Shown: positions 25,199 to 47,123 of the stretch, piece after piece
Position numbering within the stretch: the stretch's first letter is position 1
Layout: each line of letters starts with the position of its first letter
Virus record (IMG/VR): IMGVR_UViG_3300044510_000078
Length of the DNA: 64,000 nt
Source of the DNA: a virus
Strand: one strand, 5' to 3'
The notes under the pieces: model-generated
Database searches by the model: none
What the model was told of the DNA's origin: nothing
What the model saw: the letters and a program-made list of their open reading frames with translations, nothing else
Program-made: the position numbers and the translations under genes

Positions 25199-25396
25199 AT
25201 GAAAAACGAAATGAATCCAAATTCCAATCCTCAGTCTCCCTCAAATCCAGTCCCGGTTGTCAAGACCGATGCTAACCAGTTTTCCAGCCTGTTCGACGAC
25301 CCGAAGTTCAGGGCGTCGTATATCGTGATGGAAAAGCGTCGCGGAAGATTGCGTGTCAGGGCTTGGCAACGTCGCAATGGACACGACTGGCCGTAA
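25199..25396 (+). CDS. Hypothetical protein (65 aa)
   Basis: Own promoter (TTGCAT at 25159); stop TAA is the start of a dyad. Confidence 0.7.
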   Translation: MKNEMNPNSNPQSPSNPVPVVKTDANQFSSLFDDPKFRASYIVMEKRRGRLRVRAWQRRNGHDWP

Positions 25397-25464
25397 TCGC
25401 TTGAGTATCAAAGACTTGCGTTTGCGCCCGTCGCTTTTGTAAGTGTTTGCATATCAGGGTTTTG
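25393..25464. repeat. Paired-dyad element
   Basis: TAATCGCTTGAGTATCAAAGACTTG - 21 bp - TAAGTGTTTGCATATCAGGGTTTTG. Confidence 0.8.
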
Positions 25465-25527
25465 TAGCTTCACAAAAAATGTAAAATTTTTCTTGCTTTT
25501 TTGGGTAAATTACACAATAATTTAGCC

Positions 25528-25833
25528 ATGAAAACAAACACGACATTCAAAGAGATGAACACAAACCACTATGCCGTCGCTGACCCTGCTATGGTGGGCG
25601 CACTTGGAGCGTTGGTTGACGCTTACAATGATGAACTCAAAGCGTTGGAAGGCAGGTTTAATGCTCGCGCCAACGATATTCTTGTCAACGCCATTGTTCC
25701 GCGCAGGGAAGGAACTTGCAAGAAAGCAACCATTTTGAACGTAGCAGCAATCCACGGCGACACCGTTTTCGTGACAACCGCTGATGCCCGTGGAGTTCTT
25801 ACAGAAGCCTATATCCATGCTGGCATAGAGTAG
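25528..25833 (+). CDS. Hypothetical protein (101 aa)
   Basis: ATG at 25528 follows TTGCTT...ACAATAAT promoter. Confidence 0.75.
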   Translation: MKTNTTFKEMNTNHYAVADPAMVGALGALVDAYNDELKALEGRFNARANDILVNAIVPRREGTCKKATILNVAAIHGDTVFVTTADARGVLTEAYIHAGIE

Positions 25834-25996
25834 AGGGAAACATCAGTCTTTTACGTAACCCCCTTAATCCCGAATGGGTTACGTGGCGGCTGGGCGCTTT
25901 TATAAACGCTTCTGCATTAGGGTGTTACATATATGAAGACTTTACTTTAGAAAAAGATTTGACAATTCGCGCTTCTAGTGATAGACTTCTCCAATC

Positions 25997-26200
25997 ATGC
26001 GTTGCGAAGATTATCCTTGCTGTGGTCACGAGGACGGCGGTTGCCCGAACTCTGACGGAACCTTTAACTGCTGCACTTGCGGAGCCAAGCTCCCAATTGA
26101 TAGCACTAGCGCGATGTGCCGTCGTTGCCATCGTGAGATGGACAGGCGAGAGGACGGTTATGAGATGGGCGGCGATTATGATTACTCGATGAACTACTAA
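25997..26200 (+). CDS. Small Cys-rich protein (MRCEDYPCCGH...)
   Basis: TTGACA promoter at 25959; CxxC pairs; stop TAA begins a dyad. Confidence 0.8.
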   Translation: MRCEDYPCCGHEDGGCPNSDGTFNCCTCGAKLPIDSTSAMCRRCHREMDRREDGYEMGGDYDYSMNY

Positions 26201-26268
26201 ACCCTTCGGGAATAAGTAGTTACAGGCCCGCCCGCCGCCCTTGTAAGTCCTTGATATTCAACGTAATG
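26198..26268. repeat. Paired-dyad element
   Basis: TAAACCCTTCGGGAATAAGTAGTTA - 21 bp GC-rich - TAAGTCCTTGATATTCAACGTAATG, 16 bp before TTGCAA. Confidence 0.85.
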
Positions 26269-26320
26269 TAATTGAAGATTTTTCTTGCAATCCCTGATAA
26301 ATGTGGTAAAGTCTTAACTA

Positions 26321-26476
26321 ATGAAACTCTACACGCTCACTTTCGAGAACAATGGTCAAACCCGCAAAGAGCAAGCTGCGGCAACTTCGCTTCTTCACGC
26401 TCTTGACAGGCTTTACACTTTCAACAGAATCACTGCAACGGACAAACTTCTCGATTTTTCGATGGAAACGCTTTGA
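26321..26476 (+). CDS. Hypothetical protein (51 aa)
   Basis: Read manually: MKLYTLTFENNGQ...; own promoter. Confidence 0.7.
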   Translation: MKLYTLTFENNGQTRKEQAAATSLLHALDRLYTFNRITATDKLLDFSMETL

Positions 26477-26483
26477 CTGGTTT

Positions 26484-26557
26484 TGGCCCTTAGCTTAATT
26501 GGTTAAAGCAGCGAACTCATAATTCGCCGAGTGTCGGTTCAAATCCGACAGGGCCAA
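26484..26557 (+). tRNA. tRNA with CAT anticodon (Ile2-like)
   Basis: TGGCCCT/AGGGCCA acceptor, GCGAA-CTCATAA-TTCGC, GTCGG-TTCAAAT-CCGAC; resembles bacterial tRNA-Ile(CAU). Confidence 0.9.
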
Positions 26558-26624
26558 CCCTCTCATATTCAACAACTTACAAACGTCGCGGCCCGCACCT
26601 AAGTCTTTGATAATCAACTAAATA
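26555..26624. repeat. Paired-dyad element
   Basis: ...ATTCAACAACTTA - 20 bp - TAAGTCTTTGATAATCAACTAAATA, 17 bp before TTGAAA. Confidence 0.85.
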
Positions 26625-26675
26625 AACTTTAGTTTTTTTTCTTGAAATTTTGGACGTTTGTGGTATCTTCTATTC

Positions 26676-26813
26676 ATGGACGACAGATTCGAGCAACAGG
26701 ACAACGAGCAACCTTACGACGGCGCGGGCTTTCCCGGCTGTGGCGATGGTTCCGATGACTTCGCAGACTGCAACGCGAATGAGGCGGACGACTATCGCAA
26801 CGAAGGCGAGTAG
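26676..26813 (+). CDS. Very acidic microprotein (45 aa)
   Basis: Read manually: MDDRFEQQDNEQPYDGAGFPGCGDGSDDFADCNANEADDYRNEGE; leaderless promoter. Confidence 0.7.
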   Translation: MDDRFEQQDNEQPYDGAGFPGCGDGSDDFADCNANEADDYRNEGE

Positions 26814-26940
26814 TAGCCTCGGTTGAGGCGCATACTACCTGTAGTAGTCGGCGGGGCGGCGCTGTAAGTCTTTGATTATCAAGTAAATTGAAATGAAGAT
26901 TTTTCTTGTAAATTCCTGAAAATATGATACTCTTTTGAGT

Positions 26941-27186
26941 ATGGAAAAGACAATGACTCACGTTGAAGCCAATCAACTCGCAGAACGCGGCTTGACGGTT
27001 TCTGACAATCTTCTTTACGCAACGGCTCGCAAAGGCCCATTTACCTATGGCGTGAGCTACATCGAAGGGGCAAACCTTCCGTGGCGTTTCACAATGAAGG
27101 GGCCAAAAATTCACAACGTCAAGACTTGGGATTTTTCCCATTTCTGGAAGATTCTAAACCACATGGAAAAGTTTTACATTCTGTGA
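26941..27186 (+). CDS. Hypothetical protein (81 aa)
   Basis: TTGTAA...TGATACT promoter; ATG at 26941. Confidence 0.75.
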   Translation: MEKTMTHVEANQLAERGLTVSDNLLYATARKGPFTYGVSYIEGANLPWRFTMKGPKIHNVKTWDFSHFWKILNHMEKFYIL

Positions 27187-27341
27187 GCGCAAAAGTTATC
27201 AAAATCACCATCCTTTATGTCGTCACGTTGACGGACGGGCGCGTTATCCAATTCCAAAGCAAGGACGACGCCGAGCGATTCATCAACACTATGAAAAACA
27301 ACGTGGAAAGTTTTCATTTTAGGGCTTTCGAGTCCGTGTAA
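27183..27341 (+). CDS. Hypothetical protein (52 aa)
   Basis: GTGA start/stop overlap; stop TAA begins a dyad. Confidence 0.65.
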   Translation: MSAKVIKITILYVVTLTDGRVIQFQSKDDAERFINTMKNNVESFHFRAFESV

Positions 27342-27409
27342 GCCTTTACCGCTTAGGGACTTATAAATGCGCCCGCCGTCTCTGTAAGTGCTTGATAATC
27401 AAACAAATT
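27339..27409. repeat. Paired-dyad element
   Basis: TAAGCCTTTACCGCTTAGGGACTTA - 21 bp - TAAGTGCTTGATAATCAAACAAATT, 27 bp before TTGCTT. Confidence 0.85.
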
Positions 27410-27476
27410 CAATTAAAGATTTCCCAAAAATACTTCTTGCTTTTTTAGGAAAATGTGATACACTTCTTTTAAGAAA

Positions 27477-27701
27477 ATGAAGATGAAAAACACAATCTCC
27501 GAAGTGATGAACGAAATCGAAACCTCAATCGGCATAAAGCTGGATTGGGCGCGGGTGACAAACCCGAAGTGCGACAACCGCACTTTCGAGGAATGGGTCG
27601 CCAAGTGCGAACTCGAAAAGAAGTTCCCGCGAACACCGCGAATCTGCGCGGTGACGGGTTACGTTGAGCCTCGCTTCCGTTGTCCTTCCGTTCTCGCATA
27701 G
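27477..27701 (+). CDS. Hypothetical protein (74 aa)
   Basis: Own promoter; ORF track. Confidence 0.7.
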   Translation: MKMKNTISEVMNEIETSIGIKLDWARVTNPKCDNRTFEEWVAKCELEKKFPRTPRICAVTGYVEPRFRCPSVLA

Positions 27702-27732
27702 TTCCCAAAAACCAACAAACCCAAAAATCAAA

Positions 27733-27927
27733 ATGACGAAAAAACACTTCATCGCCATCGCCGCCATCATCAGTCAGACTCCAATGCCGCCGCAAACTCG
27801 CAATGAGTTGGTGGCGAAAATTTCCAAAGTCTGCAAAACCGAGAATCCGCGCTTCGACGTTGCGCGATTTACGGTCGCCTGCCTACCTACGGGGAAAAGT
27901 TTGACTTTGAGCCATAAGTGGCTCTAG
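27733..27927 (+). CDS. Hypothetical protein (64 aa, MTKKHFIAIA...NPRFDVARF..AC)
   Basis: ATG at 27733; motif pattern of small phage proteins. Confidence 0.75.
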   Translation: MTKKHFIAIAAIISQTPMPPQTRNELVAKISKVCKTENPRFDVARFTVACLPTGKSLTLSHKWL

Positions 27928-27991
27928 TCTAACGGGTTGGAAAGGGCGGGCCGCGCTCTGTATGTCCTTGATGCTGAGAGTCTTAGACAAC

Positions 27992-28267
27992 TCAGCAATA
28001 CAAACTCAACGAATTCAGTCTCCCCATGTGGTTGTCAATGGTGCAATGCAGTTTTCCACCGTTGCGCGACAACCGAAGGAAAGAGTAGCTCCCGCAATAT
28101 TCGCAGGAATCGTATCCATAGGATTCGACGCGAAAAGCGCGGAGCTTCCATCGCTTTCCCTTTTTGAAAGAGAAAGAAACCTTGTCACCGGGATTAACGC
28201 CCTTTTGCTCAAGGATGCGGCAAATGGCGGAAGTGTAGTTGTTTGATTCGGTAATTTTGATGACCAT
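27992..28267 (-). CDS. Hypothetical protein with CxxC (91 aa)
   Basis: TTGACA-17-TAGTGT-6-ATG promoter on the minus strand. Confidence 0.75.
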   Translation of the reverse strand: MVIKITESNNYTSAICRILEQKGVNPGDKVSFSFKKGKRWKLRAFRVESYGYDSCEYCGSYSFLRLSRNGGKLHCTIDNHMGRLNSLSLYC

Positions 28268-28318
28268 AGAGAAACACTATCACGACTACTGAAAAATGTC
28301 AAACTTTTTTTACAAATA

Positions 28319-28384
28319 AATCTCATTGATATACAAAGCTTTACAAAACCCCCCACCCGCAAGTCTTTGAAAGCGAGCGACTTA
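28319..28384. repeat. Paired-dyad element
   Basis: Left dyad 16 bp from the minus-strand -35; right dyad begins with the minus-strand TAA of 28382-28576. Confidence 0.8.
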
Positions 28385-28576
28385 ACGCCACGCCAATTCG
28401 GGCATTGACTCTACGCGCACGATTGCCGAGCGTCCAACCTGCCGCTTCAGCATCTCAATCTGCACGGTGGCGAGAGATTCCGCCCGAATGACGGCGGCGT
28501 AATTCACGCCGTCTTTGGCGTAAATGACACGGCGAAGGGTAGAGTTGCGGTGACGTGGGTTGATGTGGACTTGCAT
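28382..28576 (-). CDS. Hypothetical protein (64 aa)
   Basis: TTGCCT...TGATACT promoter; leaderless ATG. Confidence 0.75.
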   Translation of the reverse strand: MQVHINPRHRNSTLRRVIYAKDGVNYAAVIRAESLATVQIEMLKRQVGRSAIVRVESMPELAWR

Positions 28577-28679
28577 GGTGTAAAAGTATCACAAGAATTC
28601 CCCAAAGGCAAGAACTTTTTGAAGTTTTTTTACAAATAAATCTTTGACTTTTCAGGACAATTGTGATAGGATTTCTCCT

Positions 28680-28850
28680 ATGCGAATCAAAATCACATAC
28701 TTAAAAACCGGCAACGAATATATTCAACAGGCCGAGGAGGTTCATTTCAACAAGGGTAGTATCGCTCTTTTTGGGGAAAAGTATGCCACTTTTTTCCGTC
28801 CGCAAGACGAAGTGAAAGTCGAAATTCTGGACGATACACGGCAGTCGTAA
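28680..28850 (+). CDS. Hypothetical protein (56 aa)
   Basis: TTGACT promoter; ATG at 28680; stop begins a dyad. Confidence 0.7.
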   Translation: MRIKITYLKTGNEYIQQAEEVHFNKGSIALFGEKYATFFRPQDEVKVEILDDTRQS

Positions 28851-28919
28851 AGCTTTCTTTCTGAAGGACTTGAGGAGTCCGCAGAGCCAGTTTGTAAATC
28901 TTTGATATTCAGGTTTTAG
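28848..28919. repeat. Paired-dyad element
   Basis: TAAAGCTTTCTTTCTGAAGGACTTG - 22 bp - TAAATCTTTGATATTCAGGTTTTAG. Confidence 0.75.
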
Positions 28920-29017
28920 CCTAATCCCATGTCACGCCCCAAAGAAGTCCCCTGAGTGGAACGAAAAGTGACTGAAATTGTTTGACTTTTATTGAGTTTT
29001 CGGCTATCATCATTTTA

Positions 29018-29224
29018 ATGAATACCTCCCTCAAATCCGCGCAATATAGACTCCGTTCGACTCTCGAAGCTAACGGAATCAAAGTCGGCACGAAGAAAGC
29101 TCAAATGGCCGAATTCTTTTTCCTTCAGGGAGCATTGGCTGCCGCTGATAAGGAGTTTCCGTCCACTTCCGCAGCAATTTGTATGCTCTCTGGTCGTTCG
29201 ATTCTGACTCTCAAAAATGAGTAA
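29018..29224 (+). CDS. Hypothetical protein (68 aa)
   Basis: TTGACT-17-TATCAT promoter; ATG at 29018. Confidence 0.75.
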   Translation: MNTSLKSAQYRLRSTLEANGIKVGTKKAQMAEFFFLQGALAAADKEFPSTSAAICMLSGRSILTLKNE

Positions 29225-29294
29225 GAGGCTGTAAATCAGATACTTACAAAGCCCGCCCCGCCGCCCCCGTAAATCCTTCTCCACCAACGAAATA
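29222..29294. repeat. Paired-dyad element
   Basis: TAAGAGGCTGTAAATCAGATACTTA - 23 bp - TAAATCCTTCTCCACCAACGAAATA, 16 bp before TTGCCA. Confidence 0.8.
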
Positions 29295-29344
29295 AAAATA
29301 AGGAAAATCCTTGCCATTCCTGCAAAGTCTGGTAATATCTTTGC

Positions 29345-29977
29345 ATGATGAATCGTGCAACCGCCCTTGAAATTGTTGGCGGACTTTCCACTCCCTCAAA
29401 AATGCCGTGTCACTCTTTTTCCATTCCGGCGCGACATTGCCTTGTCGGGCAAAAGTTGCGTGATGTCGAGGGGTCAATTTGTTCCAAGTGTTACGCTTTG
29501 AAGGGGCGTTATGGATTCAAAAATGTTCAAACCGCGCTAGACCGTAGGTTTGAAAATTTGAATCACCCACTTTGGGTTACGGCAATGGCTTGGCTTTTGA
29601 ATAACGTCGAGAAAAGCGGCTTTTTCCGTTGGCACGATTCCGGCGACTTGCAAAGCGTTGAACACTTGGGGCGAATCGTTGAAGTGTGCAAACTGACTCC
29701 CGGCGTGAAGCATTGGCTTCCCACCCGTGAGTTTGGGATTGTTGGGGACTTCATCCGTGGCGGTGGTATCATTCCTGATAATCTCACAGTCCGTTTTTCC
29801 GCTTTGATGTTTGACGGTCAACCGCCCGTGACTGCGGCTCGCAATCTTGGCGTGCAAGTGTCGAGCGCAAGCAAAGAAAACTTTACTTGCCCCGCCTCAA
29901 AACAGCAAAACCAGTGCGGCGACTGTCGCGCTTGTTGGGATAAGTCGCGGTTTGACATTTCCTATAAGAAACACTAA
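29345..29977 (+). CDS. GP88-like Cys-rich protein (radical-SAM-like)
   Basis: SKMPCHSFSIPARHC...SICSKCYALKGRY, FRWHDSGD, HWLPTRE, CGDCRACW. Confidence 0.75.
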   Translation: MMNRATALEIVGGLSTPSKMPCHSFSIPARHCLVGQKLRDVEGSICSKCYALKGRYGFKNVQTALDRRFENLNHPLWVTAMAWLLNNVEKSGFFRWHDSGDLQSVEHLGRIVEVCKLTPGVKHWLPTREFGIVGDFIRGGGIIPDNLTVRFSALMFDGQPPVTAARNLGVQVSSASKENFTCPASKQQNQCGDCRACWDKSRFDISYKKH

Positions 29978-30057
29978 AAAATATGGCCATTCTAATCACG
30001 GCATTAGTTTTCGGCGTGTTTGTTTCTTTGTTTGTTGGAGCAATAGTCAATCCGCCA

Positions 30058-30129
30058 TAAGTCATTGGCTGCTAAGGACTTAGAAGGGCGGGCGGCGAAA
30101 TCCGTAACCAATTGAAATTCAATTGATTA
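30058..30129. repeat. Paired-dyad element
   Basis: TAAGTCATTGGCTGCTAAGGACTTA - 22 bp - TAACCAATTGAAATTCAATTGATTA. Confidence 0.85.
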
Positions 30130-30593
30130 CAAATTATCAGCAAGCATGGTCAACCACTCGCATCCCACCATCGTATCGCTCAGTCCGTTTGCGCGGAAGG
30201 TTCGCCCGACGCCTTAGCCTTGTCCGTTGTTGCTTGCTAAAAATGTGACGGCAGGCGGACATCGCACCCGCTTGGAGACTCGCCAACAGCTACCCTTGCT
30301 GCCGTCAGAAATTTAATGGGGCGCGTATCGCTCTCCCCCTCGCGCTAACCTTATATTGTTTGAGCGGTGGTTACAGCACCCGCTTTTGCCTCACTTTACT
30401 TGGCTCTCGGCTTCAGCTACTCGATACGAGGTCAGCTTTCGCTGGTGGTGTCGCACTTTGGGTTCTGCCACTGGCCGTTTAGTAAAGGCTCTTTGATATG
30501 TTCCGTGACTTTTGAGAGTTTAGCGTCAAACATTTTGCGAATGACGCCGCGAAGTAAGTCTCGCTCTACGTAACACACCAAAGAACCTTCAAC
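30130..30593 (-). ncRNA. Candidate large structured ncRNA (about 460 nt)
   Basis: TTGCAT-17-TATTCT promoter (30629-30601) with no nearby start codon; GC-rich, multiple inverted repeats. Confidence 0.55.
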
Positions 30594-30655
30594 TGTTAAT
30601 AGAATACCATAAAACGAAAAAAAATGCAAGCACTTTTTTGAACTTTTTTCCATTT

Positions 30656-30726
30656 TAAGCCATTGAAACTCAAGAACTTACGAGGCGAACGGGCGGCGGC
30701 GTAAATCCTTGATAGATAACAGTTTG
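30656..30726. repeat. Paired-dyad element between divergent promoters
   Basis: TAAGCCATTGAAACTCAAGAACTTA - 21 bp - TAAATCCTTGATAGATAACAGTTTG. Confidence 0.85.
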
Positions 30727-30791
30727 TAAAATCTCACTTTTTTCAGAAAGAAAGTTGTTGACCTTTTGCGGCTTTGTGATACTCTTTTTAC

Positions 30792-31034
30792 ATGATGAAC
30801 GACTTCACCGCCCTAAACGCAGAAACCGAAACGTCCGCCTTCGCCAAGTTCACTACCGAGGAACACGCCGAATATCAGGCGTGGCTCGACGAGCGTGAGC
30901 AGGAAACACTTGAAGAAAAGCAGCAGCGTAAGCTCGACGCATGGCGCAAGTGGGGCGAAAAAATGGCATTTCTCCGTCAAATTCACGAGGAAATTGCGCC
31001 CCTCATCGCAGCGCGCAAGGCCGCACTCGAATAA
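30792..31034 (+). CDS. Hypothetical protein (80 aa)
   Basis: TTGACC...TGATACT promoter. Confidence 0.75.
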   Translation: MMNDFTALNAETETSAFAKFTTEEHAEYQAWLDEREQETLEEKQQRKLDAWRKWGEKMAFLRQIHEEIAPLIAARKAALE

Positions 31035-31050
31035 TAGTTCAGTTCTCGCG

Positions 31051-31121
31051 CAAGTCTTTGGGCAATAGGGGCTTACGCTGGGCGGGGGCGTTTTTGCAAG
31101 TCCTTGTTAGTGAATAACTTA
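31051..31121. repeat. Paired-dyad element
   Basis: CAAGTCTTTGGGCAATAGGGGCTTA - 21 bp - CAAGTCCTTGTTAGTGAATAACTTA, 7 bp before TTGACT. Confidence 0.8.
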
Positions 31122-31165
31122 AAAATTCTTGACTTTTGAAATTTTTATGCTACAATAAGAAACAA

Positions 31166-31324
31166 GTGGATAAATCATTTTCAAACCTATCTCTTGACTC
31201 TGCCGCCGATGCTGTTGACATTCTCAGGGCAATGCAATCTCTTGATAATCAAGAACTTACGCAGTTTGAAACTTGGCTTGAGGCAATAATGGTTCCAACT
31301 GAGCGACCTATTTGCCACGAATAG
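31166..31324 (+). CDS. Hypothetical protein (52 aa, GTG start)
   Basis: TTGACT-17-TACAAT promoter. Confidence 0.6.
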   Translation: MDKSFSNLSLDSAADAVDILRAMQSLDNQELTQFETWLEAIMVPTERPICHE

Positions 31325-31428
31325 GAGGGCTATTTAGCGAAGTGGGTGTTCGTTTTTGGAATGCTATTTCGAGTGCCAGATGTTCATTTTTAAGTTGACT
31401 TTTTAGAGTTTTCTGATAATATCTTTTC

Positions 31429-31683
31429 ATGCTTAGTGAATACGATAAGACTCACCTCGACGAAATCCTCTGTGGTCATGGAGATTGGTTCACAGCGCAG
31501 CTTTTGCGTTTGATTGCGAAGTCTGACTTGAGCAATCGAGCGCGGCTGACGAAGGGTTTTCCTGAAGAAGTCGCCCTTGTCAACAAATATCAGTTTGGCG
31601 AGCCAGAAGATTCAACAGTCATGTGCGAAAATTGCCATTCTGCCGTGCATCACACGAACGAGTGCATTTATTCCCGACGCTAA
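31429..31683 (+). CDS. Hypothetical protein (84 aa; DWFTAQLLRLIAKSD..NRARL..GFPEEV)
   Basis: TTGACT-17-TAATAT promoter; leaderless ATG. Confidence 0.8.
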   Translation: MLSEYDKTHLDEILCGHGDWFTAQLLRLIAKSDLSNRARLTKGFPEEVALVNKYQFGEPEDSTVMCENCHSAVHHTNECIYSRR

Positions 31684-31690
31684 CAACATT

Positions 31691-31897
31691 ATGAATGACG
31701 AAACAAAGTATTTTCAGTGTCCAGCTTGCGAACAAGAAAGTGGTATGCCACTGCGTCAACTTCATCAATACATTCTTTGCCGTTGCACTTCTTGTAATTG
31801 GGAATGGGTATTGAGTGAAATTGAAGATTTACGCACTCCTCGTTTGGGAGTCGGTGATTTCGTTGAGTCTCGGGGCTATCGGAAGGGCTTTCGATAG
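31691..31897 (+). CDS. Zinc-ribbon protein (68 aa)
   Basis: CPAC...CTSC; ATG at 31691. Confidence 0.7.
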   Translation: MNDETKYFQCPACEQESGMPLRQLHQYILCRCTSCNWEWVLSEIEDLRTPRLGVGDFVESRGYRKGFR

Positions 31898-31978
31898 CGT
31901 TCTCTATTTTGAATAGAGCTTTCGGCCTAAAACCTTTCTAACTAGGGAGTTATGCAAATCGGGGACCGAAATTAAAAA

Positions 31979-32299
31979 TCACCCGCGAAGATAAATAACA
32001 TGGCCGCTCTTGCCAATACCTTCCATCCCGAATAAAGGAGATTTCACGTTTCCCCTTGCGTGTTTCGCTGGCGCATTAAAACTTGCGGGCTTGAAAATGT
32101 CTCCAGTTAAAATCTCGACAAAAGCCACAAGTCGGCGGTTGTTTTCAGAGCCATCGTGATTGATTTCAATACTAAAAACTTTCACGAACCTACGTCCAAC
32201 GGTCATTTTAACTATTGACTCTTTGAAGTAAGTGTAGCCCATTTCATTCTTATATTCATTCAAGCGTTTAGTAAGGGCAGTTGCAAAGTCGCAAATCAT
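31979..32299 (-). CDS. Conserved phage protein (GDIFKPASFNAPAKHARGNV), 5' end abuts a dyad
   Basis: Motif seen in small phage proteins; ATG overlaps the end of the dyad TAAGCCTTAATAATCAACGCCTTA. Confidence 0.7.
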   Translation of the reverse strand: MICDFATALTKRLNEYKNEMGYTYFKESIVKMTVGRRFVKVFSIEINHDGSENNRRLVAFVEILTGDIFKPASFNAPAKHARGNVKSPLFGMEGIGKSGHVIYLRG

Positions 32300-32330
32300 A
32301 AGGCGTTGATTATTAAGGCTTACCAAGATG

Positions 32331-32696
32331 TCACACGGTAAATTTGCACATTTCGTCTCGCACAACAGGGTCAAGACGAAAACACGGCGGCGGAAATTTG
32401 ACTCGTGCCGCCAAATTTTCAGGAGAAATGACTGCGCTGCGAGATTCACCCGTATCCTCATCGCAGCCAAGCACAAGACCATTGCCCATCAGCAAACGCC
32501 CATCGAAAAAAAACGCCTTCTCCGTGCCGTTAATCAAACCCTCATCGTCAACATAAAGGGTGTCGCCGTCCTCAAGATACCCACCCACGCAGAACAAATC
32601 GCAGCCAATCAACTTCCTAATTTCTCCGTCCGAAACGGAGACTTTGGAAATGGTTCGGTCAGTTGCGTTGATGAGAAAACCAGCGTTCGATTTCAT
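32331..32696 (-). CDS. DUF3846-like protein
   Basis: LIGC...DTLYVDDEGLI...LMGNGLVLG. Confidence 0.7.
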   Translation of the reverse strand: MKSNAGFLINATDRTISKVSVSDGEIRKLIGCDLFCVGGYLEDGDTLYVDDEGLINGTEKAFFFDGRLLMGNGLVLGCDEDTGESRSAVISPENLAARVKFPPPCFRLDPVVRDEMCKFTV

Positions 32697-32737
32697 AAAA
32701 GAATCTTATCAGAAGTTTGTGCAGGCGTCAAGATTTT

Positions 32738-33010
32738 TTAATCACTCGAATCGGTTTCCGTGTCCACGTTATACACGAAAAACTTATTGTGAGAGTCCAC
32801 GCTCTCGACCGTGCTGGACACAATCCTCATTGACTGCCCAAAGAACCCAGCCATTTTGACCAAAGTGAGAATTTCCTCCAAGGCTAGAGGAGCGTTGAAA
32901 CGCTTCACTGTCCAACCATGAGAAGTTACACACCCAAACGGAGAGTGGCCGGAATTCAGGGTCACAGAAATTCGAGGATTCGTTGGGCCATTAGAAAGTT
33001 GATTTGCCAT
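32738..33010 (-). CDS. Hypothetical protein (90 aa)
   Basis: TTGCGT...TAGTAT-6-ATG promoter; dyad 16 bp upstream of the -35. Confidence 0.7.
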   Translation of the reverse strand: MANQLSNGPTNPRISVTLNSGHSPFGCVTSHGWTVKRFNAPLALEEILTLVKMAGFFGQSMRIVSSTVESVDSHNKFFVYNVDTETDSSD

Positions 33011-33108
33011 GTCCAAATACTATCACAACAAACAAAAAACGCAAGAAATTTCTACATCTTTATGTTCTTTAGGCTCAAGGATTTATAAATCCGGCCCCCC
33101 CCGATTTT

Positions 33109-33306
33109 TTAATCGGACTCTTGCTCTGGATGAGGAACTGGCTTACCAGAGTAATGAGGATTTCTTTCCCACGTATCGTAATCAGTTAAAATCCAAGCTC
33201 GGTTGGGTCGTGTGGAACCATAATTGCGGGTGAACTCTCGACAGGCTTCTTGTTTGGTCGCAATTTGGTCTTCTCGTTCGTAGAAATGATTAGCAAGAGC
33301 ATCCAT
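33109..33306 (-). CDS. Hypothetical protein (65 aa; WILTDYDTWERNPHYSGKPVPHPE)
   Basis: Conserved-looking small phage protein motif. Confidence 0.75.
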   Translation of the reverse strand: MDALANHFYEREDQIATKQEACREFTRNYGSTRPNRAWILTDYDTWERNPHYSGKPVPHPEQESD

Positions 33307-33856
33307 AATTAAAATCGTCCAAAGTAACCTTTTTGCCAAGCACGACCGATAAGTGGAACATCAGTTCTTCCGCGCTATCCAGTTCGTCAATGGAGTGTAA
33401 ATCGTGACCCTGATAAACAATATCGCCATTATAGGCATTGTCAATCAGAGTTTCGTATGCGACTCGCGGACTATTGTAATTGTCATGGCGTCTTGCATAA
33501 TCCCATAGCCAGTTTTGAGAGATTTCTTTTTGCGTAGATTTATTAACAAAATTTTCTTTGTCAAGGTCTGGATGACTCCAATCATGGCGTAAATTTGTGA
33601 CTGTCTTTGGATACAGAAATAACCAACACGCTGAATTTTTGGAAGTGTATAGCTCCTTCAAAAACGGGTCAATGATACCGATTTTTGTTTTGGCGTTTCT
33701 ACTGACTTTGACCCCCATGCTCGACATTGACACAACTCCAACGTGCGCTCCTGCGCTCAAAACTTCATCAGAAATAACCGGAATTATAGCAACGTGAATT
33801 GCGTCACGGTTGGCGTTTGGAGTGGTGAGTTGTCCGATGTTTGGTTCATTTTTCAT
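33290..33856 (-). CDS. Hypothetical protein (188 aa), paralog of 57848-58393
   Basis: RDAIHVAIIPV, GIIDPFL, WLFLYPKTVTNLRHDWSHP, YGCSC. Confidence 0.85.
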   Translation of the reverse strand: MKNEPNIGQLTTPNANRDAIHVAIIPVISDEVLSAGAHVGVVSMSSMGVKVSRNAKTKIGIIDPFLKELYTSKNSACWLFLYPKTVTNLRHDWSHPDLDKENFVNKSTQKEISQNWLWDYARRHDNYNSPRVAYETLIDNAYNGDIVYQGHDLHSIDELDSAEELMFHLSVVLGKKVTLDDFNYGCSC

Positions 33857-33859
33857 GTT

Positions 33860-34100
33860 TTAGATTTCAAAGTTTTTGAGCATACGGTCAACAGTTTCCT
33901 TTGGGACATTATGGACGCTACCAAAGTTTCCTTTGACGATGATTTCCTGAATTTGATAACCGTGATGTTCGGCAAATTCAACGTATGGCTCCATTTTCCC
34001 ACTTTTTGACGCTTGTGTTAGAAACAATTACCTGTTCGACTCCCTTAGCCATCGCTTCTTTGGCGTCCTGAATACAGCGGATGTGGCTCATCGGGATATG
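33860..34100 (-). pseudogene. 5'-truncated, frameshifted AAA_33/polynucleotide-kinase-like remnant
   Basis: VIVSNTSVKKWE (+1 in the A4 run at 33994-33997) MEPYVEFAEHHGY...SVHNVPKETVDRM; no P-loop upstream. Confidence 0.6.
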
Positions 34101-34123
34101 GGAAAATCATTGCTGATGAAAAA

Positions 34124-34618
34124 ATGTGCGCCTACAAGAAAAAACAATCAATCAATAATTCTGGACAAAAAAATAAAATGTTCGGTAAACCGTCTCCCAA
34201 TGGCTCTGGGAATGGGTGGAAAGGATGGATTGACGGAAAACATTTCAGAAGTTTAAGAGAGTTAGTGATTCTTATAGAACTAATAGATACGAAGTCTATT
34301 TTTGAATCTGGAGAACAGGCAAAATATGCTATAAACTATATTGATTGTCTTGGGGTAAAAAGGACATATTTTCCAGATTATATTGTTTTTTCATCAAAAC
34401 AAATCATAGAAATCAAACCTAAAAGACTCTGGGGAACTCCGAGTGTAAAAAGAAAAAGCTCGGTTGGAAAAATTTTTGCTGAATCTATGGGATTTAATTA
34501 CGTCTTAAAAGACCCAATTATAGAGTCCAATAAAATTAAAGCCATAATACACAGAATAAAATTTTATCCAAAATATGAAAAAAAGTTTTGGGAATGGCAA
34601 ACTATGCCCGTTCGCTAG
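34124..34618 (+). CDS. TnsA-like PD-(D/E)xK free-standing endonuclease, probably 5'-truncated
   Basis: NKMFGKP, HFRSLRE, RTYFPDYIV...IIEIKP; the frame extends upstream without a start to about 34091. Confidence 0.65.
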   Translation: MCAYKKKQSINNSGQKNKMFGKPSPNGSGNGWKGWIDGKHFRSLRELVILIELIDTKSIFESGEQAKYAINYIDCLGVKRTYFPDYIVFSSKQIIEIKPKRLWGTPSVKRKSSVGKIFAESMGFNYVLKDPIIESNKIKAIIHRIKFYPKYEKKFWEWQTMPVR

Positions 34619-35003
34619 TTGTCGGCCTAAACCAAATGCCGCGCTCCAAAGTCAAGTTTCCCAAAACAGGAAAACGCACAAATAGCTGCTTGAAAGCCCA
34701 TCCAGAATTAGCCGCGAACATTTTCAGAAGTTCTTCTCGAATCCGTTCCGTTGACACTCCAGAAAAAGAATTCAAAGAAAACTTATGAATTGCATTACTG
34801 GTTTCCCAAAGTAAGTGCATCTTCTTGGTGGCGGCAAAACGCAAAGCACGTAAAATTCTCAGCTTATCTTCGTTGAAGCGGTGAACCGGATTGCCAACGC
34901 AACGAACAACTCTCGCACAAATATCTCCCCTGCCATTATGCGGGTCAATTAGCTCATTGGTTGAGATATTCCTTGCGATGGCGTTCATGGTGAAGCGCGA
35001 GCA
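34602..35003 (-). pseudogene. C-terminal half of a CCA-adding/poly(A) polymerase nucleotidyltransferase
   Basis: (R)FTMNAIA, LIDPHNGRGD, RFNEDKLRILRALRF, VSTERIREEL. The N-terminal GGxVRD/DxD half is missing and replaced by a dyad at 35004-35028. Confidence 0.8.
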
Positions 35004-35083
35004 TAAACCCTTCATAATCATAGACTTACAAGGTAATAAAAAATGTATTGACTTTTTAATAGCCGTCTGATAATATATCCAAA

Positions 35084-36169
35084 ATGAAAATCAACCTCCA
35101 ATCTATTGACCGCTCTCAATTCCTAGTCCAAGAGCGTCTAGTGAATGGTGAGACAATGGTATTGGTTAATCCTCAACACGTTGGAGTAAAGTGGACGCCT
35201 GAAAACCTTCATTATCGTTCTTCTCTGTGGACTCTCGAAGGAGAGTTGGTTTCTGCGTCTTTCAAAAAGTTTTTTAATTGGGGAGAGCAACCAAATCTTG
35301 CACCGATTCCAAATTCTCTTGCCGGACATTCTTTGATTGAAAAGTTGGACGGTTCAACGCTAATCGTTTCCCGTTACAAGGGTAATCTCATTATACGCAC
35401 GCGAGGCACGGCAGACGCAACTGGACTTGAAAATGGCCACGAAATTGCTCTCTTGCGAAAATGCTATCCATACGCATTTAATCACGTTGACGTGAATTGT
35501 GAAAATTATTCAGTAATTTTTGAGTGGCTTTCTCCGACGAACAAAATCGTCATTGATTATGGCGCGGAGCCAGAGATTCGACTTATCGGCCAAATCAGTC
35601 ATCGGAACTATGCGCTGACTTCTCAAAAGGAGCTTGACGTGATTGCGGAAGAAATGGGAGTCAAGCGTCCAAAGCGTTTCTCGTTTGATACCGTTGAAGA
35701 AATGATTGGTTCTGTCGAAAAGCTACAAGGACAAGAGGGGCTTTGCTGCTATTCACCAGATGGACAAAACATCCGTAAGGTTAAGTCTGCTTGGTATCTT
35801 GCGCTCCACCGTTTCAAGGAAAACGCTACCCTAGACAATACCGTGGATTTGTTTTTTGAGTATGGTTGTCCGAATTTTCTGGGCTTTCAAGGTAAGTTGG
35901 TGCAAACTTTTGATTATGAATGTTGGAACATGGTTCAGGGCTTTGCGTCTTGTGTGGTTGACGCTTACGAGCAAGCAACCCGAATCGCGTCGGGTATGGT
36001 TCGATTTGTAGAACCTCTGAAGTCTGTCTCGCGTAAGGAAGCGGCGCAAAAGATTCTCGCCTCTTATGGACAAACGAATCGGGCGTCGTTTTGTTTTCAA
36101 ATCTTGGACGGTAAGACTTTGGACATTGACGCACAAAAGAAGCTCCTTTGGCAATGCCTGAAAAAGTGA
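35084..36169 (+). CDS. RNA ligase, T4 Rnl1-like
   Basis: FKKFFNWGE, motif I EKLDGST, IFEW, EGLCC, KVKSAWY. Confidence 0.85.
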   Translation: MKINLQSIDRSQFLVQERLVNGETMVLVNPQHVGVKWTPENLHYRSSLWTLEGELVSASFKKFFNWGEQPNLAPIPNSLAGHSLIEKLDGSTLIVSRYKGNLIIRTRGTADATGLENGHEIALLRKCYPYAFNHVDVNCENYSVIFEWLSPTNKIVIDYGAEPEIRLIGQISHRNYALTSQKELDVIAEEMGVKRPKRFSFDTVEEMIGSVEKLQGQEGLCCYSPDGQNIRKVKSAWYLALHRFKENATLDNTVDLFFEYGCPNFLGFQGKLVQTFDYECWNMVQGFASCVVDAYEQATRIASGMVRFVEPLKSVSRKEAAQKILASYGQTNRASFCFQILDGKTLDIDAQKKLLWQCLKK

Positions 36170-36292
36170 ACTCCTATAAGTATTACAACAACAAAGCGGG
36201 TCGCGCGCTTCATAAGTGGTTGATTAATAAAGGGTTATGTTTTTTTAATTTTTGGGATTGACATTACAATAAAGTAATGGTAATCTATTCTT

Positions 36293-38549: not shown

Positions 38550-38966
38550 TTAAATAGTAGCAGATTTTTGAGGTTTCGTCAAGCAAAGACTTGAAAGTTT
38601 TCGCACTTCCTTGCGGTTTTGCAGGACGTGTTCTTCGTCGAGAATGACGGCTTGCGAACTACCAACCAAAACGTCGGCGTCGTAAATTGCAAGCTTAAAT
38701 CCTAACGCCTCAAGAGCCAAAAGGATTTTATCATCATAAAACCACGCCCTAAGCTGTTCAATGCTCTTGAACCCAAATCGAAAGCGAGGAAAATAAGGCT
38801 CCGAAAATCCATCCTTCCTCAATGACTCCATCAAAAGAGAATCGTCTTGCGGGACAGGATGGCGGGGGCTAGACGAACTCTTACCTTTCAACCACTGACG
38901 GATTGCATCATACCCATTTTTATATGGGCCGTATCGCTTTTTATCTTCAATCCTGTAAAACAGCAC
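38550..38966 (-). CDS. Hypothetical protein (138 aa; YRIE..GPY..HP.P..D...FGF.S..QL..WF)
   Basis: TTGACT...TATATT-6-GTG promoter; dyad 17 bp upstream of the -35. Confidence 0.8.
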   Translation of the reverse strand: MLFYRIEDKKRYGPYKNGYDAIRQWLKGKSSSSPRHPVPQDDSLLMESLRKDGFSEPYFPRFRFGFKSIEQLRAWFYDDKILLALEALGFKLAIYDADVLVGSSQAVILDEEHVLQNRKEVRKLSSLCLTKPQKSATI

Positions 38967-39078
38967 GCGACAAATATACCAGAAAACCCTTCAAAGTCAA
39001 CAAAAAAAATAAATTTATAATTCCTTTATAGGCAAAGACTTACGTAGCCCGGGCCGCGCTCGACGTGCTCGACGACCC

Positions 39079-40672: not shown

Positions 40673-41034
40673 GGCTTTAATACTACCATAAAAACTTAAA
40701 AAGTCAACAACTTTATCTTGTTGATAGTTAAGGACTTGAAGAGGCGGGGGCCCATTTTTTATTTGCCGAGAAGTTTGGTCAGACAATTCTTGTGAAAAAC
40801 AGCCCAATTTCCACCGGGGATATTTTCTTGAACTAAAACTGAATCTTCAACTAAATTTATTAGTTCGTTACATCGCAAGCATTTACATGGAAGCATACTA
40901 GCTAATGGAACAAAATATTTAAGTTCTCTCATTTTTTACTTATGATTTTTGCCAATGAAATGCGTCGTAAAAACCGCAATGAACAATCCCGCTGTGATAA
41001 TTAAAATCCACATTAGTTTTCACAAGTAAGGAAG

Positions 41035-41338: not shown

Positions 41339-41968
41339 TCAATGCTTTTTGTAGGAAATGGAAAAAACTTCTTTAGACCAACAGGAGCGACAAGTTCCGC
41401 ACTTGTTTCCCTGATTTGAAGCCGGACAAGTGAACGAGTCTTTTGACGCTCCTGAAACTTGCAAACCAAAACGATTCGCAATTGTAACCGGCGCAGGGCC
41501 ATCAAACATCAGAGCCGACAAGCGAACGCAAAGGTTTTCGGGAATTGAATTTCCGGCATTGACATATTCTGCTACAATGGAAAATTCACGAGTCGGCAAC
41601 CAATGTTTGACTTGCGGAGTATGTTCCGCAATGGCGCAAATTCTCGAAAGATGCTCAACGCTTTGAATGTCGCCGCTGTCGTGCCAGCGAAAAAAGCCAC
41701 TTTTCTCCATTGTGTTCAAAAGGAAAATCATAGCCTCTACCCATTTAGGATGATTCAACGCGACGAATCGCTTCTCTAGTGCGGTTTGAACATTCTTAAA
41801 AACATAACGCCCCTTTAGAGCGTAGCACTTTGAGCAAATAGAATTTTCCACAGCACGAAGTTTTTGCCCCGTGATACAATACCGCGCAGGGATTGAATAC
41901 CCATAACACGGCATCTTAGATGGGGAAGAAAGTCCGCCGACAATTTCCCATGCGAGGTTTTTATTCAT
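41339..41968 (-). CDS. GP88-like Cys-rich protein, paralog of 29345-29977
   Basis: SKMPCYGYSIPARYC...SICSKCYALKGRY, FRWHDSGD, HWLPTRE. Confidence 0.8.
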   Translation of the reverse strand: MNKNLAWEIVGGLSSPSKMPCYGYSIPARYCITGQKLRAVENSICSKCYALKGRYVFKNVQTALEKRFVALNHPKWVEAMIFLLNTMEKSGFFRWHDSGDIQSVEHLSRICAIAEHTPQVKHWLPTREFSIVAEYVNAGNSIPENLCVRLSALMFDGPAPVTIANRFGLQVSGASKDSFTCPASNQGNKCGTCRSCWSKEVFSISYKKH

Positions 41969-42620: not shown

Positions 42621-42673
42621 GTTGGTAAATCTTACTCCTTTTACCTTACAAAGTCAAATAAAAAATCAAAAAA

Positions 42674-42744
42674 TATCTCCTTCACTATCAAGGACTTACG
42701 AGACGGACGGGCGCTTTTATAAATCCCTCTGGCAAAACCTATTG
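42674..42744. repeat. Paired-dyad element
   Basis: ...CTATCAAGGACTTA - 21 bp - TAAATCCCTCTGGCAAAACCTATTG. Confidence 0.8.
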
Positions 42745-42810
42745 GAACTTATTTAACTTTAAAGATTATTTGCGGGTATTTGATGTATTTTATACTTATT
42801 TTGGGAAAGG

Positions 42811-45394: not shown

Positions 45395-45500
45395 AAAAAC
45401 ATAATACATCCATTCTACTAGAAAGTCAACAAAAAGTTACGCCTATAATAGCTTGATAATCAAAGACTTGCGACGCGGGCCGACCGAATTTTAAAAATAA

Positions 45501-46936: not shown

Positions 46937-46978
46937 GATTTAATTCTAGCACGTTTTTCTAAGATGTCAAGCTCTTCG

Positions 46979-47048
46979 TAAGTGCTTAATCATCAAACTC
47001 TTGCGTGGCGTGCCATCGGAATTATAAATCCTTAAAAATCAACAACTT
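46979..47048. repeat. Paired-dyad element
   Basis: TAAGTGCTTAATCATCAAACTCTTG - 20 bp - TAAATCCTTAAAAATCAACAACTTA. Confidence 0.85.
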
Positions 47049-47123
47049 AAAAAACATTTTAATTACTTGAATTGATTATTTGGAAGCTTATTTGATAGGT
47101 ATAGATTCTGAGGGGATTATTTG

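Follow-up and report, generated by a model that had tools for sequence, protein, structure and literature searches.

Known IHF sites, such as H' of lambda, are single and asymmetric and are found upstream of promoters. In the BIME/RIP repeats of enterobacteria, an IHF site is flanked by REP palindromes. The attC sites of integrons are conserved in folded structure rather than in sequence, have a fixed orientation, need IntI and flank cassettes without promoters of their own, which are all read from a single one. In T4-type phages, promoter-early stem-loops (PeSLs) have been described for RB49/phi1, T4/PST and KVP40/nt-1, where units are proposed to be exchanged through homologous recombination of the motifs (Arbiol et al., 2010, PMC2839356; Comeau et al., 2014, PMC4122927).

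The stretch of DNA analysed here (64,000 nucleotides, hereafter the window) is from an uncultured lake phage that has many small genes in the region where a 27-bp dyad is repeated. With a PWM trained on 278 copies of the dyad, the window has 28 dyads of at least 10 bits, where shuffles give an expectation of 0.33, and GTAAGTCYTTGATAATCAA with up to three mismatches has 12 matches, against 0.09 expected. These approximately 28 copies span 25.4–47 kb of the window. The dyads are usually paired around a 19-bp GC-rich spacer, with start-to-start distances of 45–48 nt, usually 46 nt, and a sigma70-type promoter is usually located 3' of the pair. If D2 denotes the promoter-proximal dyad and D1 its distal partner at the end of the upstream gene, the cassette order is D1, 19-nt spacer, D2, A/T-rich stretch, promoter and ATG; D1, spacer and D2 are referred to as an element. 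Each cassette possesses its own sigma70-like −35/−10 promoter, which is A/T-rich upstream and directly follows the upstream stop, and the ATG is found approximately 6–7 nt 3' of the −10 box. Consequently, the mRNA should be leaderless. The −35 box is usually 15–16 nt from D2, or approximately one helical turn more or less (5–6, 15–16 or 26–27 nt in 12 of 17 cassettes), and the spacer is oriented at random relative to the genes, being G-rich in six, C-rich in six and mixed in six of 18 cassettes. There are dozens of module copies, each of approximately 70 bp and about 70–80% alike, and the cassette genes are ORFans on both strands. The same dyad is found at 48 IMG/VR loci of widely diverged uncultured phages, with spacer sequences and motifs that differ by phage lineage; a complete relative of 172 kb has its dyads only within approximately 17 kb adjoining the structural genes.

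The original prediction held that upstream genes stop inside the dyad, and seven ORFs indeed end on a TAA at dyad positions 2–4. On the plus strand, ORF 25199–25396 is closed by TAA 25394–25396 of the element at 25393–25465 (D1 of 22.6 bits, 19-nt spacer and D2), ORF 25997–26200 by TAA 26198–26200 of the element at 26197–26269 (D2 at 26243, 22.1 bits), whose D1 and stop are also kept in L070, the closest relative found, and ORF 27081–27341 by TAA 27339–27341 of the element at 27338–27410 (D2 at 27384, 22.8 bits). Further along this strand, TAA 28848–28850 closes ORF 28644–28850 (element 28847–28920), TAA 29222–29224 closes ORF 28982–29224 ahead of the GP88 gene at 29345–29977 (element 29221–29295), and TAA 30058–30060 closes the 25-codon ORF 29984–30060 with a PP-stop end identical to that in L070 (element 30057–30130). 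On the minus strand, the dyad TAA of the element at 28318–28385 is the stop of ORF 28382–28576 and is followed by the promoter of ORF 27992–28267, also on the minus strand. To these cases may be added the RNA ligase gene at 35084–36169, after which lies the plus-strand element 36166–36238 (D2 at 36212, 18.1 bits): its TGA stop (36167–36169) falls where dyad positions 2–4 would be, at the same distance from the promoter-proximal dyad as the TAA stops. In total, the stop is at the dyad position in 8 of the 12 cassettes with an ORF upstream (seven TAA and the RNA ligase TGA), and for four of five orthologous pairs between the window and L070 it is within the dyad in both phages. Among ORFs of at least 60 codons in relatives, the stop is at dyad position 2 in 16 cases and at position 10 in 29. 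The conserved letters of the dyad hold TAA at positions 2–4 and TGA at positions 10–12 on both strands, so an ORF packed against the dyad is closed in two of three frames. Stops in the dyad come mainly from the conserved letters of the site itself and from tight packing. Stop codons beside dyads, like the short C-terminal tails and gene remnants found there, should be annotated with caution as by-products of the site.

Other plus-strand elements are placed differently. The element at 26554–26625 (D1 of 15.6 bits, D2 of 20.8 bits) comes right after tRNA-Met (26483–26560), that at 30655–30727 (D1 of 22.8 bits, D2 of 12 bits) precedes the promoter of ORF 30792–31034, and that at 31050–31122 begins 16 nt after the upstream stop, TAA 31032–31034. 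A solo dyad of 25.6 bits at 31234–31260 lies within an ORF; it has CAA instead of TAA at positions 2–4, and the frame therefore continues to TAG 31322–31324. At 46978–47050, a dyad pair (19.6 and 22.5 bits) has starts 46 nt apart. On the minus strand, a dyad plus GC spacer is found at 39017–39062 (20.2 bits, before the promoter of ORF 38550–38966 on that strand), 40713–40758 (11.6 bits, before the promoter of a metallophosphatase gene) and 45445–45490 (21.9 bits, with the IHF consensus on both strands), while at 42673–42745 a dyad of 24.2 bits with spacer and degenerate partner precedes the minus-strand operon 42544–41339, which holds a second GP88 copy. Several elements had been claimed to retain a single dyad; those at 39017, 40713 and 45445, together with that at 42673, score 11.6–24.2 bits, those at 31925 and 37140 fall below 8 bits, and the one placed at 33061 also scores below 8 bits on the PWM but is recognizable by eye as a promoter-proximal dyad with a G-rich spacer at 33070–33111 on the minus strand, where it serves ORF 32738–33016 of that strand. 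The proposal that gene 31979–32299 starts in a dyad is not borne out: the dyad at 32299 scores no more than 9.4 bits, and ORF 31979–32482 has a DUF7717 match that begins upstream of it.

Each dyad can be read as two overlapping, back-to-back matches to the IHF consensus on opposite strands, YAA-N4-TTGATW and WATCAA-N4-TTR. The nine specified letters of the consensus as quoted, WATCAANNNNTTR (PMC8942017, PMC10380432), coincide exactly with the conserved columns of the PWM, and its N4 with the variable ones; the sequence columns of the dyad are 85–99% conserved. The window contains 24 exact consensus matches, against 6.9 ± 2.7 expected, and most of them are in dyads. D2 in the window keeps one oriented consensus. 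Of 18 cassettes, nine have a perfect one that faces away from the promoter and two have a perfect one that faces toward it, with an A/T-rich flank on the promoter side of D2, 5' of the consensus. Most D1 copies are poor matches, with two to five mismatches. No phage-encoded member of the HU/IHF family (PF00216) was found in five relatives, and no Sigma54_activat gene in the relatives searched. Judging from the consensus match, we infer that the binder is host IHF or a protein of similar specificity. Our preferred reading, to which we assign a probability of roughly 55%, is that the repeat is a protein-bound boundary module before early-type promoters, that it is no site of a dedicated recombinase and that it gives homology for PeSL-like cassette exchange. 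The homology between modules would let the general recombination of the phage delete, duplicate or swap promoter-gene units, by a route like that described for the PeSLs of T4-type phages.

Comparison with relatives bears on this reading. Approximately half of the window cassettes are common to the window and L070, three of them in a different order, and orthologous elements stay in place between the two. In the window, elements mark the ends of some clean indels and of one replacement. The further suggestion that the element is a recombination site stands in so far as promoter-gene units have been gained, lost and reordered among related phages, but its integron analogy fails on all features tested except stop position. 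Synteny breakpoints, predicted to be enriched at the dyad or spacer, are no denser at elements (3.79 per kb) than in other intergenic DNA (3.70 per kb) across the relatives, while block ends between the window and L070 fall at elements in 7 of 24 cases against 16% expected (p = 0.085), a weak enrichment. The modules may also be purely regulatory or architectural, with the cassette-sized differences reflecting selection that keeps only rearrangements between genes. The equal breakpoint densities are in keeping with this explanation, as are the 23 of 40 replacements and 6 of 15 clean indels that touch no element and the lack of joints from excised or rejoined cassettes in the contigs of four lake metagenomes, which as contigs drop rare forms. 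We nevertheless regard it as unlikely, albeit with appreciable weight, given that in L001/L005, L013/L030 and L009/L019 an element present once in one genome is present twice in the other, flanking an extra unit, and given the two observations at 33.1–35.0 kb that follow.

The segment at 33.1–35.0 kb is replaced in L070, and its borders, the dyads at 33070–33111 (left) and 35003–35029 (right), are at dyads in both genomes. It carries a remnant of a tRNA nucleotidyltransferase (CCA enzyme) gene, which had been predicted to lose its N-terminal half at a dyad. This is the case: ORF 34602–35021 on the minus strand matches only residues 120–248 of a 248-aa phage tRNA nucleotidyltransferase, and the N-terminal half has no match elsewhere in the 64-kb window. 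The first codons of the ORF overlap the plus-strand dyad 35003–35029, the CCA homology begins a few bases away at 34994, and no promoter of its own is present in the sequence. The dyad itself is a solo promoter-proximal copy of 18.4 bits with neither spacer nor partner, followed after 18 nt by the −35 box of the promoter of the RNA ligase gene. A run that belongs to another study also yielded a contig with this junction (X4, 34808–36208). This gene, cut at the dyad edge, may be one product of cassette rearrangement.

Another explanation is that the dyads act in RNA, as terminators or 3'-end stabilising hairpins corresponding to the stem-loop part of PeSLs, with stops in the stem by packing only. 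D1 is located exactly at gene 3' ends, and its place is taken by an unrelated hairpin in three plus-strand elements: a 9-bp-stem hairpin at 25860–25933, a variant with a G-rich spacer and degenerate D2 whose upstream ORF stops 25 nt earlier (TAG 25831–25833); a GC hairpin at 26818–26890 (D2 at 26864, 20.4 bits; ORF stop TAG 26811–26813); and a short hairpin at 27914–27986 (D2 at 27960, 14 bits; ORF stop TAG 27925–27927). These hairpins suggest an RNA or structural role there. The RNA folds of D1 regions are together more stable than shuffles (approximately −3.3 combined, by our own arithmetic), although the single z-scores, −1.9 to +0.2, are weak. However, the halves do not covary in a set of 345 distinct dyads taken from the window and from relatives: at 9 of 12 pairs, Watson–Crick pairing is at the level expected for independent halves, and the excess at the remaining three is only about 0.05. 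No U-tracts follow the dyads, terminator-like sites are not above chance (10 against 14.6 expected), and the part that is best conserved in the window, D2, consists of a half dyad, which is incapable of forming the hairpin. An RNA function of the dyads is thus improbable.

Another idea, to which we give little credence, is that lytic phages possess an undescribed machinery for cassette exchange that has the double dyad as its target. The site, of IHF type and bent by a host protein, would then be cut or paired by a phage protein that is neither a tyrosine nor a serine recombinase; GP88 or another of the ubiquitous genes of the dyad region, or a TnsA-like endonuclease, would be candidates. Under this idea, a dedicated system instead of general recombination would have captured and reordered genes and truncated the CCA gene. 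Dedicated site-specific recombination of an integron-like or loxP-like kind, capturing and reordering cassettes, is very doubtful. It would account for stops at the element edge, as in attC, the asymmetric spacer between two dyads, the gene truncated at a dyad edge and the different cassette order in the window and L070. The tyrosine or serine recombinase that was expected, however, was not found among the Pfam-scanned window ORFs or in three related records, one 100% complete and two partial (Phage_integrase, PF00589; Resolvase), and what is conserved in the site is its sequence, with no covariation. Random spacer orientation, genes on both strands, a promoter per cassette, lineage-specific spacers and the joint-free metagenome contigs also argue against it. 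An integron attC is not supported, given that no integrase was found in these relatives or the scanned window ORFs and given the lack of covariation, the random spacer orientation and the promoters in each cassette. That the 73-bp unit is a MITE-like mobile element spread in the early region by a transposase or homing nuclease is scarcely credible, since its many dispersed copies with inverted ends, its lineage-specific spacer motifs, suggestive of amplification or homogenisation within genomes, and the TnsA-like endonuclease ORF in the window are countered by fixed, helically phased distances to promoters, no target-site duplications in the cases read by eye, restriction to one region and orthologous elements in place in the window and L070.

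As a proposed protein-bound boundary module, the element shows how the variable early region is organised in a large family of uncultured aquatic phages, with one putative docking site for a host factor that would combine a promoter-upstream module, a built-in stop signal and a homology patch for single-gene exchange. It would also extend the PeSL idea beyond T4-type coliphages and offers a specific candidate binder, IHF or a look-alike.

Compared with known systems, the element shares with BIME/RIP its intergenic position at the 3' ends of transcription units and the combination of a GC-rich part with an IHF-type site, but the layout is inverted, in that IHF-type dyads flank the GC-rich part, which forms no REP hairpin, and the setting is a phage and tied to promoters. 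Like attC, it separates single-gene units whose stops are often at or in the repeat edge. The likeness to IHF sites includes all nine specified consensus letters as conserved dyad columns, the A/T-rich tract 5' of the consensus at D2 and the helically phased position before promoters; unlike those sites, two predicted sites overlap back to back in each palindrome, and the palindromes are paired 46–48 bp apart. PeSLs differ in being G/C stem-loop terminators, whereas the conserved part of the element is a pair of sequence-conserved 27-bp IHF-consensus dyads without covariation, its GC spacer is not self-complementary and its dyad recurs in widely diverged uncultured phages; mini-circles are part of the PeSL picture, whereas here the four metagenomes, seen as contigs that drop rare forms, hold no joints. 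Despite these differences, both are composite intergenic motifs that begin at the upstream stop codon, include an A/T-rich stretch and a sigma70-like promoter and are concentrated among small ORFan genes, and in both cases units flanked by the motif are inserted, deleted or replaced between related phages.

Most gene junctions between 25.4 and 47 kb of the window share one layout: a first 27-nt dyad (D1) that begins at the stop codon of the upstream gene, a 19-nt GC-rich spacer, a second dyad (D2) whose first 19 nt (GTAAGTCYTTGATAATCAA) are well preserved, an A/T-rich stretch, a promoter and the ATG. The promoter consists of a -35 box (TTGnnn) separated by ~17 nt from an extended -10 box (TGnTAnnnT), and because the ATG follows the -10 box by ~6-7 nt, the mRNA should be leaderless. 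A PWM derived from 278 copies detects 28 dyads scoring 10 bits or more in the window, where 0.33 are expected, and the 19-mer with up to three mismatches has 12 matches versus 0.09 expected. The start-to-start distance of paired dyads is 45-48 nt. The exact 19-mer pattern is present in 48 IMG/VR loci, most of which hold numerous copies, frequently paired perfect palindromes GTAAGTCGTTGATAATCAACGACTTAC; in G001, a complete 172-kb relative, 24 of 28 dyads are situated inside ~17 kb adjoining the structural genes, 48 nt apart. In 12 of 17 cassettes (i.e., the promoter-gene units behind the elements), D2 is separated from the -35 box by 5-6, 15-16 or 26-27 nt, values that differ by steps of one helical turn. 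Relative to the promoter, the spacer is G-rich in six cassettes, C-rich in six and mixed in six, so its role, if any, is independent of strand. The spacer motif, found in either orientation, is GGGCGGGCGGCG in the window, GGGTCCCTGC in the group of the related locus L001, GGGGCCCC in L040, GGGGGTAGGGGGAG in L012 and GGCCCCCCC in L070, the closest relative found. Comparison of the window, the L001 group, L040/L048, L012, L009 and L070 reveals that the motif is lineage-specific, suggesting within-genome homogenisation or a lineage-specific partner.

The source of the window is a large uncultured lake phage. Its structural genes, at 0.5-19 kb, share ~65% DNA identity with L023, L030 and L035 of IMG/VR and with G001. 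The GC content of ~24-53 kb is 0.42-0.47, above the 0.32-0.36 found elsewhere in the window; ARAGORN predicts 20 tRNA genes, and an Rfam search returned tRNAs only. Megablast with 25-37 kb of the window gave no match among the INPHARED phages, and the IMG/VR searches yielded distant relatives only, with identities of at most 51% for the RNA ligase and at most 49% for a full-length match of GP88. L070, a metagenome contig, is closer, its GP88 and RNA ligase being 88 and 70% identical to those of the window at the protein level. Three paralogues of GP88, a Cys-rich protein (PF17338) of unassigned function, are encoded in the window, each downstream of a dyad, at 29345-29977 (plus strand), 41339-41968 (minus) and 60180-60920 (minus). 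GP88 is the gene most often common to the dyad regions of the relatives (14 loci) and is also present in the dyad-free loci L054-L059. As a dyad-specific partner GP88 was rejected, since the loci reached via GP88 or RNA ligase (L049-L059) are essentially dyad-free, with a single dyad match, in L053.

A hairpin under selection is expected to show strong covariation between its halves. Among 345 distinct dyads, pairing between the halves equals the expectation from independent columns at 9 of 12 position pairs and exceeds it by ~0.05 at the remaining three, and this lack of strong covariation argues that the dyad is read as a sequence in double-stranded DNA. Conservation is found in columns 2-4 (TAA), 9-13 (TTGAT), 15-19 (ATCAA) and 24-26 (TTA), and columns 5-8 and 20-23 are variable; the pattern reads exactly as YAA-N4-TTGATW and, on the opposite strand, WATCAA-N4-TTR. 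Judged from these columns, the dyad consists of two opposed, overlapping matches to WATCAANNNNTTR, the IHF consensus given in PMC8942017 and PMC10380432. Exact matches to this consensus number 24 in the window versus 6.9 +/- 2.7 expected, and most of them are in dyads. Of 18 cassettes, nine have a perfect D2 consensus directed away from the promoter and two have one directed toward it; the A/T-rich stretch is on the 5' side of the consensus directed away. No gene of the HU/IHF family was found in five relatives, which makes a host protein the likelier candidate for the binder. D1 in the window is mostly a poor match to the IHF consensus, and unrelated hairpins occupy three D1 places. The D1 regions fold slightly better than shuffled sequences, with z-scores from -1.9 to +0.2 that combine to ~-3.3 by our own arithmetic, and canonical terminators are not above chance. 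Consequently, a minor RNA-level role of D1 at gene 3' ends is possible.

Two further features were observed. In several relatives (L012, L040, L048, L002, L009 and, in L070, at 3986-4002 and 4846-4862), Sigma54-type motifs (TGGCAYG-N4-TTGC) are located at ~10-25 nt from perfect dyad pairs; they always point into the dyads, at times from both sides, and part of them sit in a GTGCCA...TGGCAC hairpin. A Sigma54_activat gene was not detected in the relatives searched. The other is a GC-rich unit of ~450 nt on the minus strand of the window (30130-30640), which has no Rfam match and short parts of which match contigs of other organisms or of relatives (loose ends at 30319, 30575 and 30609). This unit carries a promoter of its own (TTGCAT ... 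TGGTATTCT, near 30640-30605) and lacks a convincing ORF, so it may represent a cassette for a non-coding RNA.

The original prediction held that the element may also be a recombination site, likened to that of integron cassettes, in part on the basis of seven TAA stop codons inside dyads. These are genuine ORF ends, at dyad positions 2-4. The TGA of the RNA ligase gene (36167-36169) is at the same distance from its own D2 as the dyad TAA stops, and with it 8 of the 12 cassettes having an upstream ORF carry a stop at the dyad place. Four of five orthologous genes in L070 likewise end on a dyad TAA, and the fifth stops 8 nt earlier. Among ORFs of 60 codons or more in other relatives, 16 stop at dyad position 2 (TAA) and 29 at position 10 (TGA or TAA), far more than at any adjacent position. 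On either strand, one frame of the conserved dyad letters reads TAA and another reads TGA, leaving the third frame alone open, and the intergenic space of the array is filled completely by element and promoter. Because two frames hold stops and this space is fully packed, an ORF that abuts a dyad is closed by it; the pattern is therefore explained by site composition and tight packing. The open third frame is in use where the dyad at 31234-31260 lies inside an ORF with CAA replacing TAA, and the dyad at L030:10899-10925 is read through with the same replacement. Both are solo dyads that have neither spacer nor partner, and they may be scars of earlier rearrangements. The proposed start of the gene at 31979 inside a dyad did not hold up: the dyad at 32298 reaches no more than 9.4 bits, and the match to DUF7717 within ORF 31979-32482 begins upstream of that dyad; the elements proposed at 31925 and 37140 each score below 8 bits. 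On the minus strand, this ORF and ORF 32331-32696 (DUF3846) overlap by ~150 nt in different frames, for which a frameshift, a gene fusion or a pair of overlapping genes could account.

As was also predicted, a CCA-enzyme gene is cut at a dyad. ORF 34602-35021 (minus strand) matches only residues 120-248 of a 248-aa protein of Microbacterium phage Big4, Pfam and PHROGs agree with a C-terminal-only match, and tblastn with the full enzyme detected nothing else in the window. Homology begins at 34994 and the dyad is at 35003-35029. The fragment has no match in the IMG/VR searches, and PF01743 is absent from the records of five relatives. The same junction is present in a contig (34808-36208) of X4, a sequencing run from another study, and is therefore not an assembly artefact. 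The 3' end of the remnant is intact, and no promoter of its own, adjacent spacer or partner dyad is seen in the sequence; the dyad at 35003 belongs to the RNA ligase promoter, whose -35 box is 18 nt away. The same promoter in L070 lies downstream of a full dyad-spacer-dyad module that is shared with a divergent promoter. The simplest account would be that one endpoint of a deletion or exchange fell at the spacer/D2 border and the second within the CCA gene, so that the rearrangement took place at an element without being a precise element-to-element event. Nearby on the minus strand, a phrog_2071 ATPase is represented by two out-of-frame fragments (33978-34091 and 33860-34027) that miss the N-terminal part of the family, and on the plus strand is a free-standing TnsA-like endonuclease ORF (34124-34618), the 3' end of which extends 17 nt into the CCA remnant. 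The ATPase fragments adjoin the endonuclease ORF and not a dyad, so decay in the 33.1-35.0 kb segment is not all dyad-linked, and the TnsA-like ORF beside them may be a homing-type insertion.

Cassette exchange at element borders, the part of the predicted capture and reordering that stood, is real. L070 is syntenic with 25.2-41.4 kb of the window, yet mosaic at the grain of single cassettes: by hand count it has counterparts for ~11 of 22 window units, three of them in a different order (homologues of 27733-27882, of 28982-29224, and of 30792-31034 against 31429-31683), and RNA ligase 2 is absent. A tRNA-Met-like gene is found in the cassette array of the window (26483-26560) and after the RNA ligase in L070 (L070:10507-10581), so that movement as cassettes extends to tRNA genes. 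In L070 a different gene stands in place of the segment at 33.1-35.0 kb, which in the window contains an ORF pair, the ATPase fragments, the endonuclease ORF and the CCA remnant; both borders are at dyads in both genomes. Some clean indels between the related loci L001/L005, L013/L030 and L009/L019 show the element once in one locus and twice, flanking an extra unit, in the other; one small gene is placed at a different element in L001 than in L005, its stop being against a dyad each time.

A system with a dedicated recombinase is unlikely. Block ends from 20 pairwise comparisons total 408, of which 92 fall within 25 nt of an element versus 36 expected at random. The predicted enrichment of synteny breakpoints at elements disappears when intergenic DNA is the reference, as the densities are 3.79 per kb in elements, 3.70 in other intergenic DNA and 0.72 in coding DNA, all three with crude gene calls. 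Elements are untouched in 6 of the 15 clean indels and in 23 of the 40 replacements, and between the window and L070 7 of 24 block ends are within 40 nt of an element (16% expected, p = 0.085). Excised or rejoined forms had been anticipated; the contigs of four lake metagenomes are 99-100% identical to the window and collinear over many elements, and contain no such joints. An X4 contig matching 25394-25420 runs on into the sequence following the dyad at 45446-45472. A 20-kb deletion variant joining the two dyads is a possible explanation; the repeat copies are identical at 24 of 27 nt and 45.4 kb is outside the stretch compared, and the loose end at 25420 is probably a cross-match of the 27-nt repeat with no junction. 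Neither a Phage_integrase nor a Resolvase gene was detected in the complete relative and two partial ones, and no recombinase is among the window ORFs scanned.

No published description of the window element was found in the literature searched. The integron analogy fails on the features that define attC, which is conserved as structure, whereas the dyad is conserved as sequence, and which comes with fixed orientation, promoterless cassettes and an integrase, none of which was found for the window element. The nearest described system is PeSL of the T4-type phages, which begins at a stop codon, combines a sigma70 promoter with an A/T-rich region and a stem-loop, and is located in hyperplastic ORFan regions, where it mediates indels and mini-circles through homologous recombination (PMC2839356, PMC4122927). 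The window element is similar to PeSL in layout and evolutionary consequences. It differs in its core, which is made of paired dyads matching the IHF consensus instead of a G/C stem-loop terminator, and in that it also recurs across widely diverged uncultured phages.
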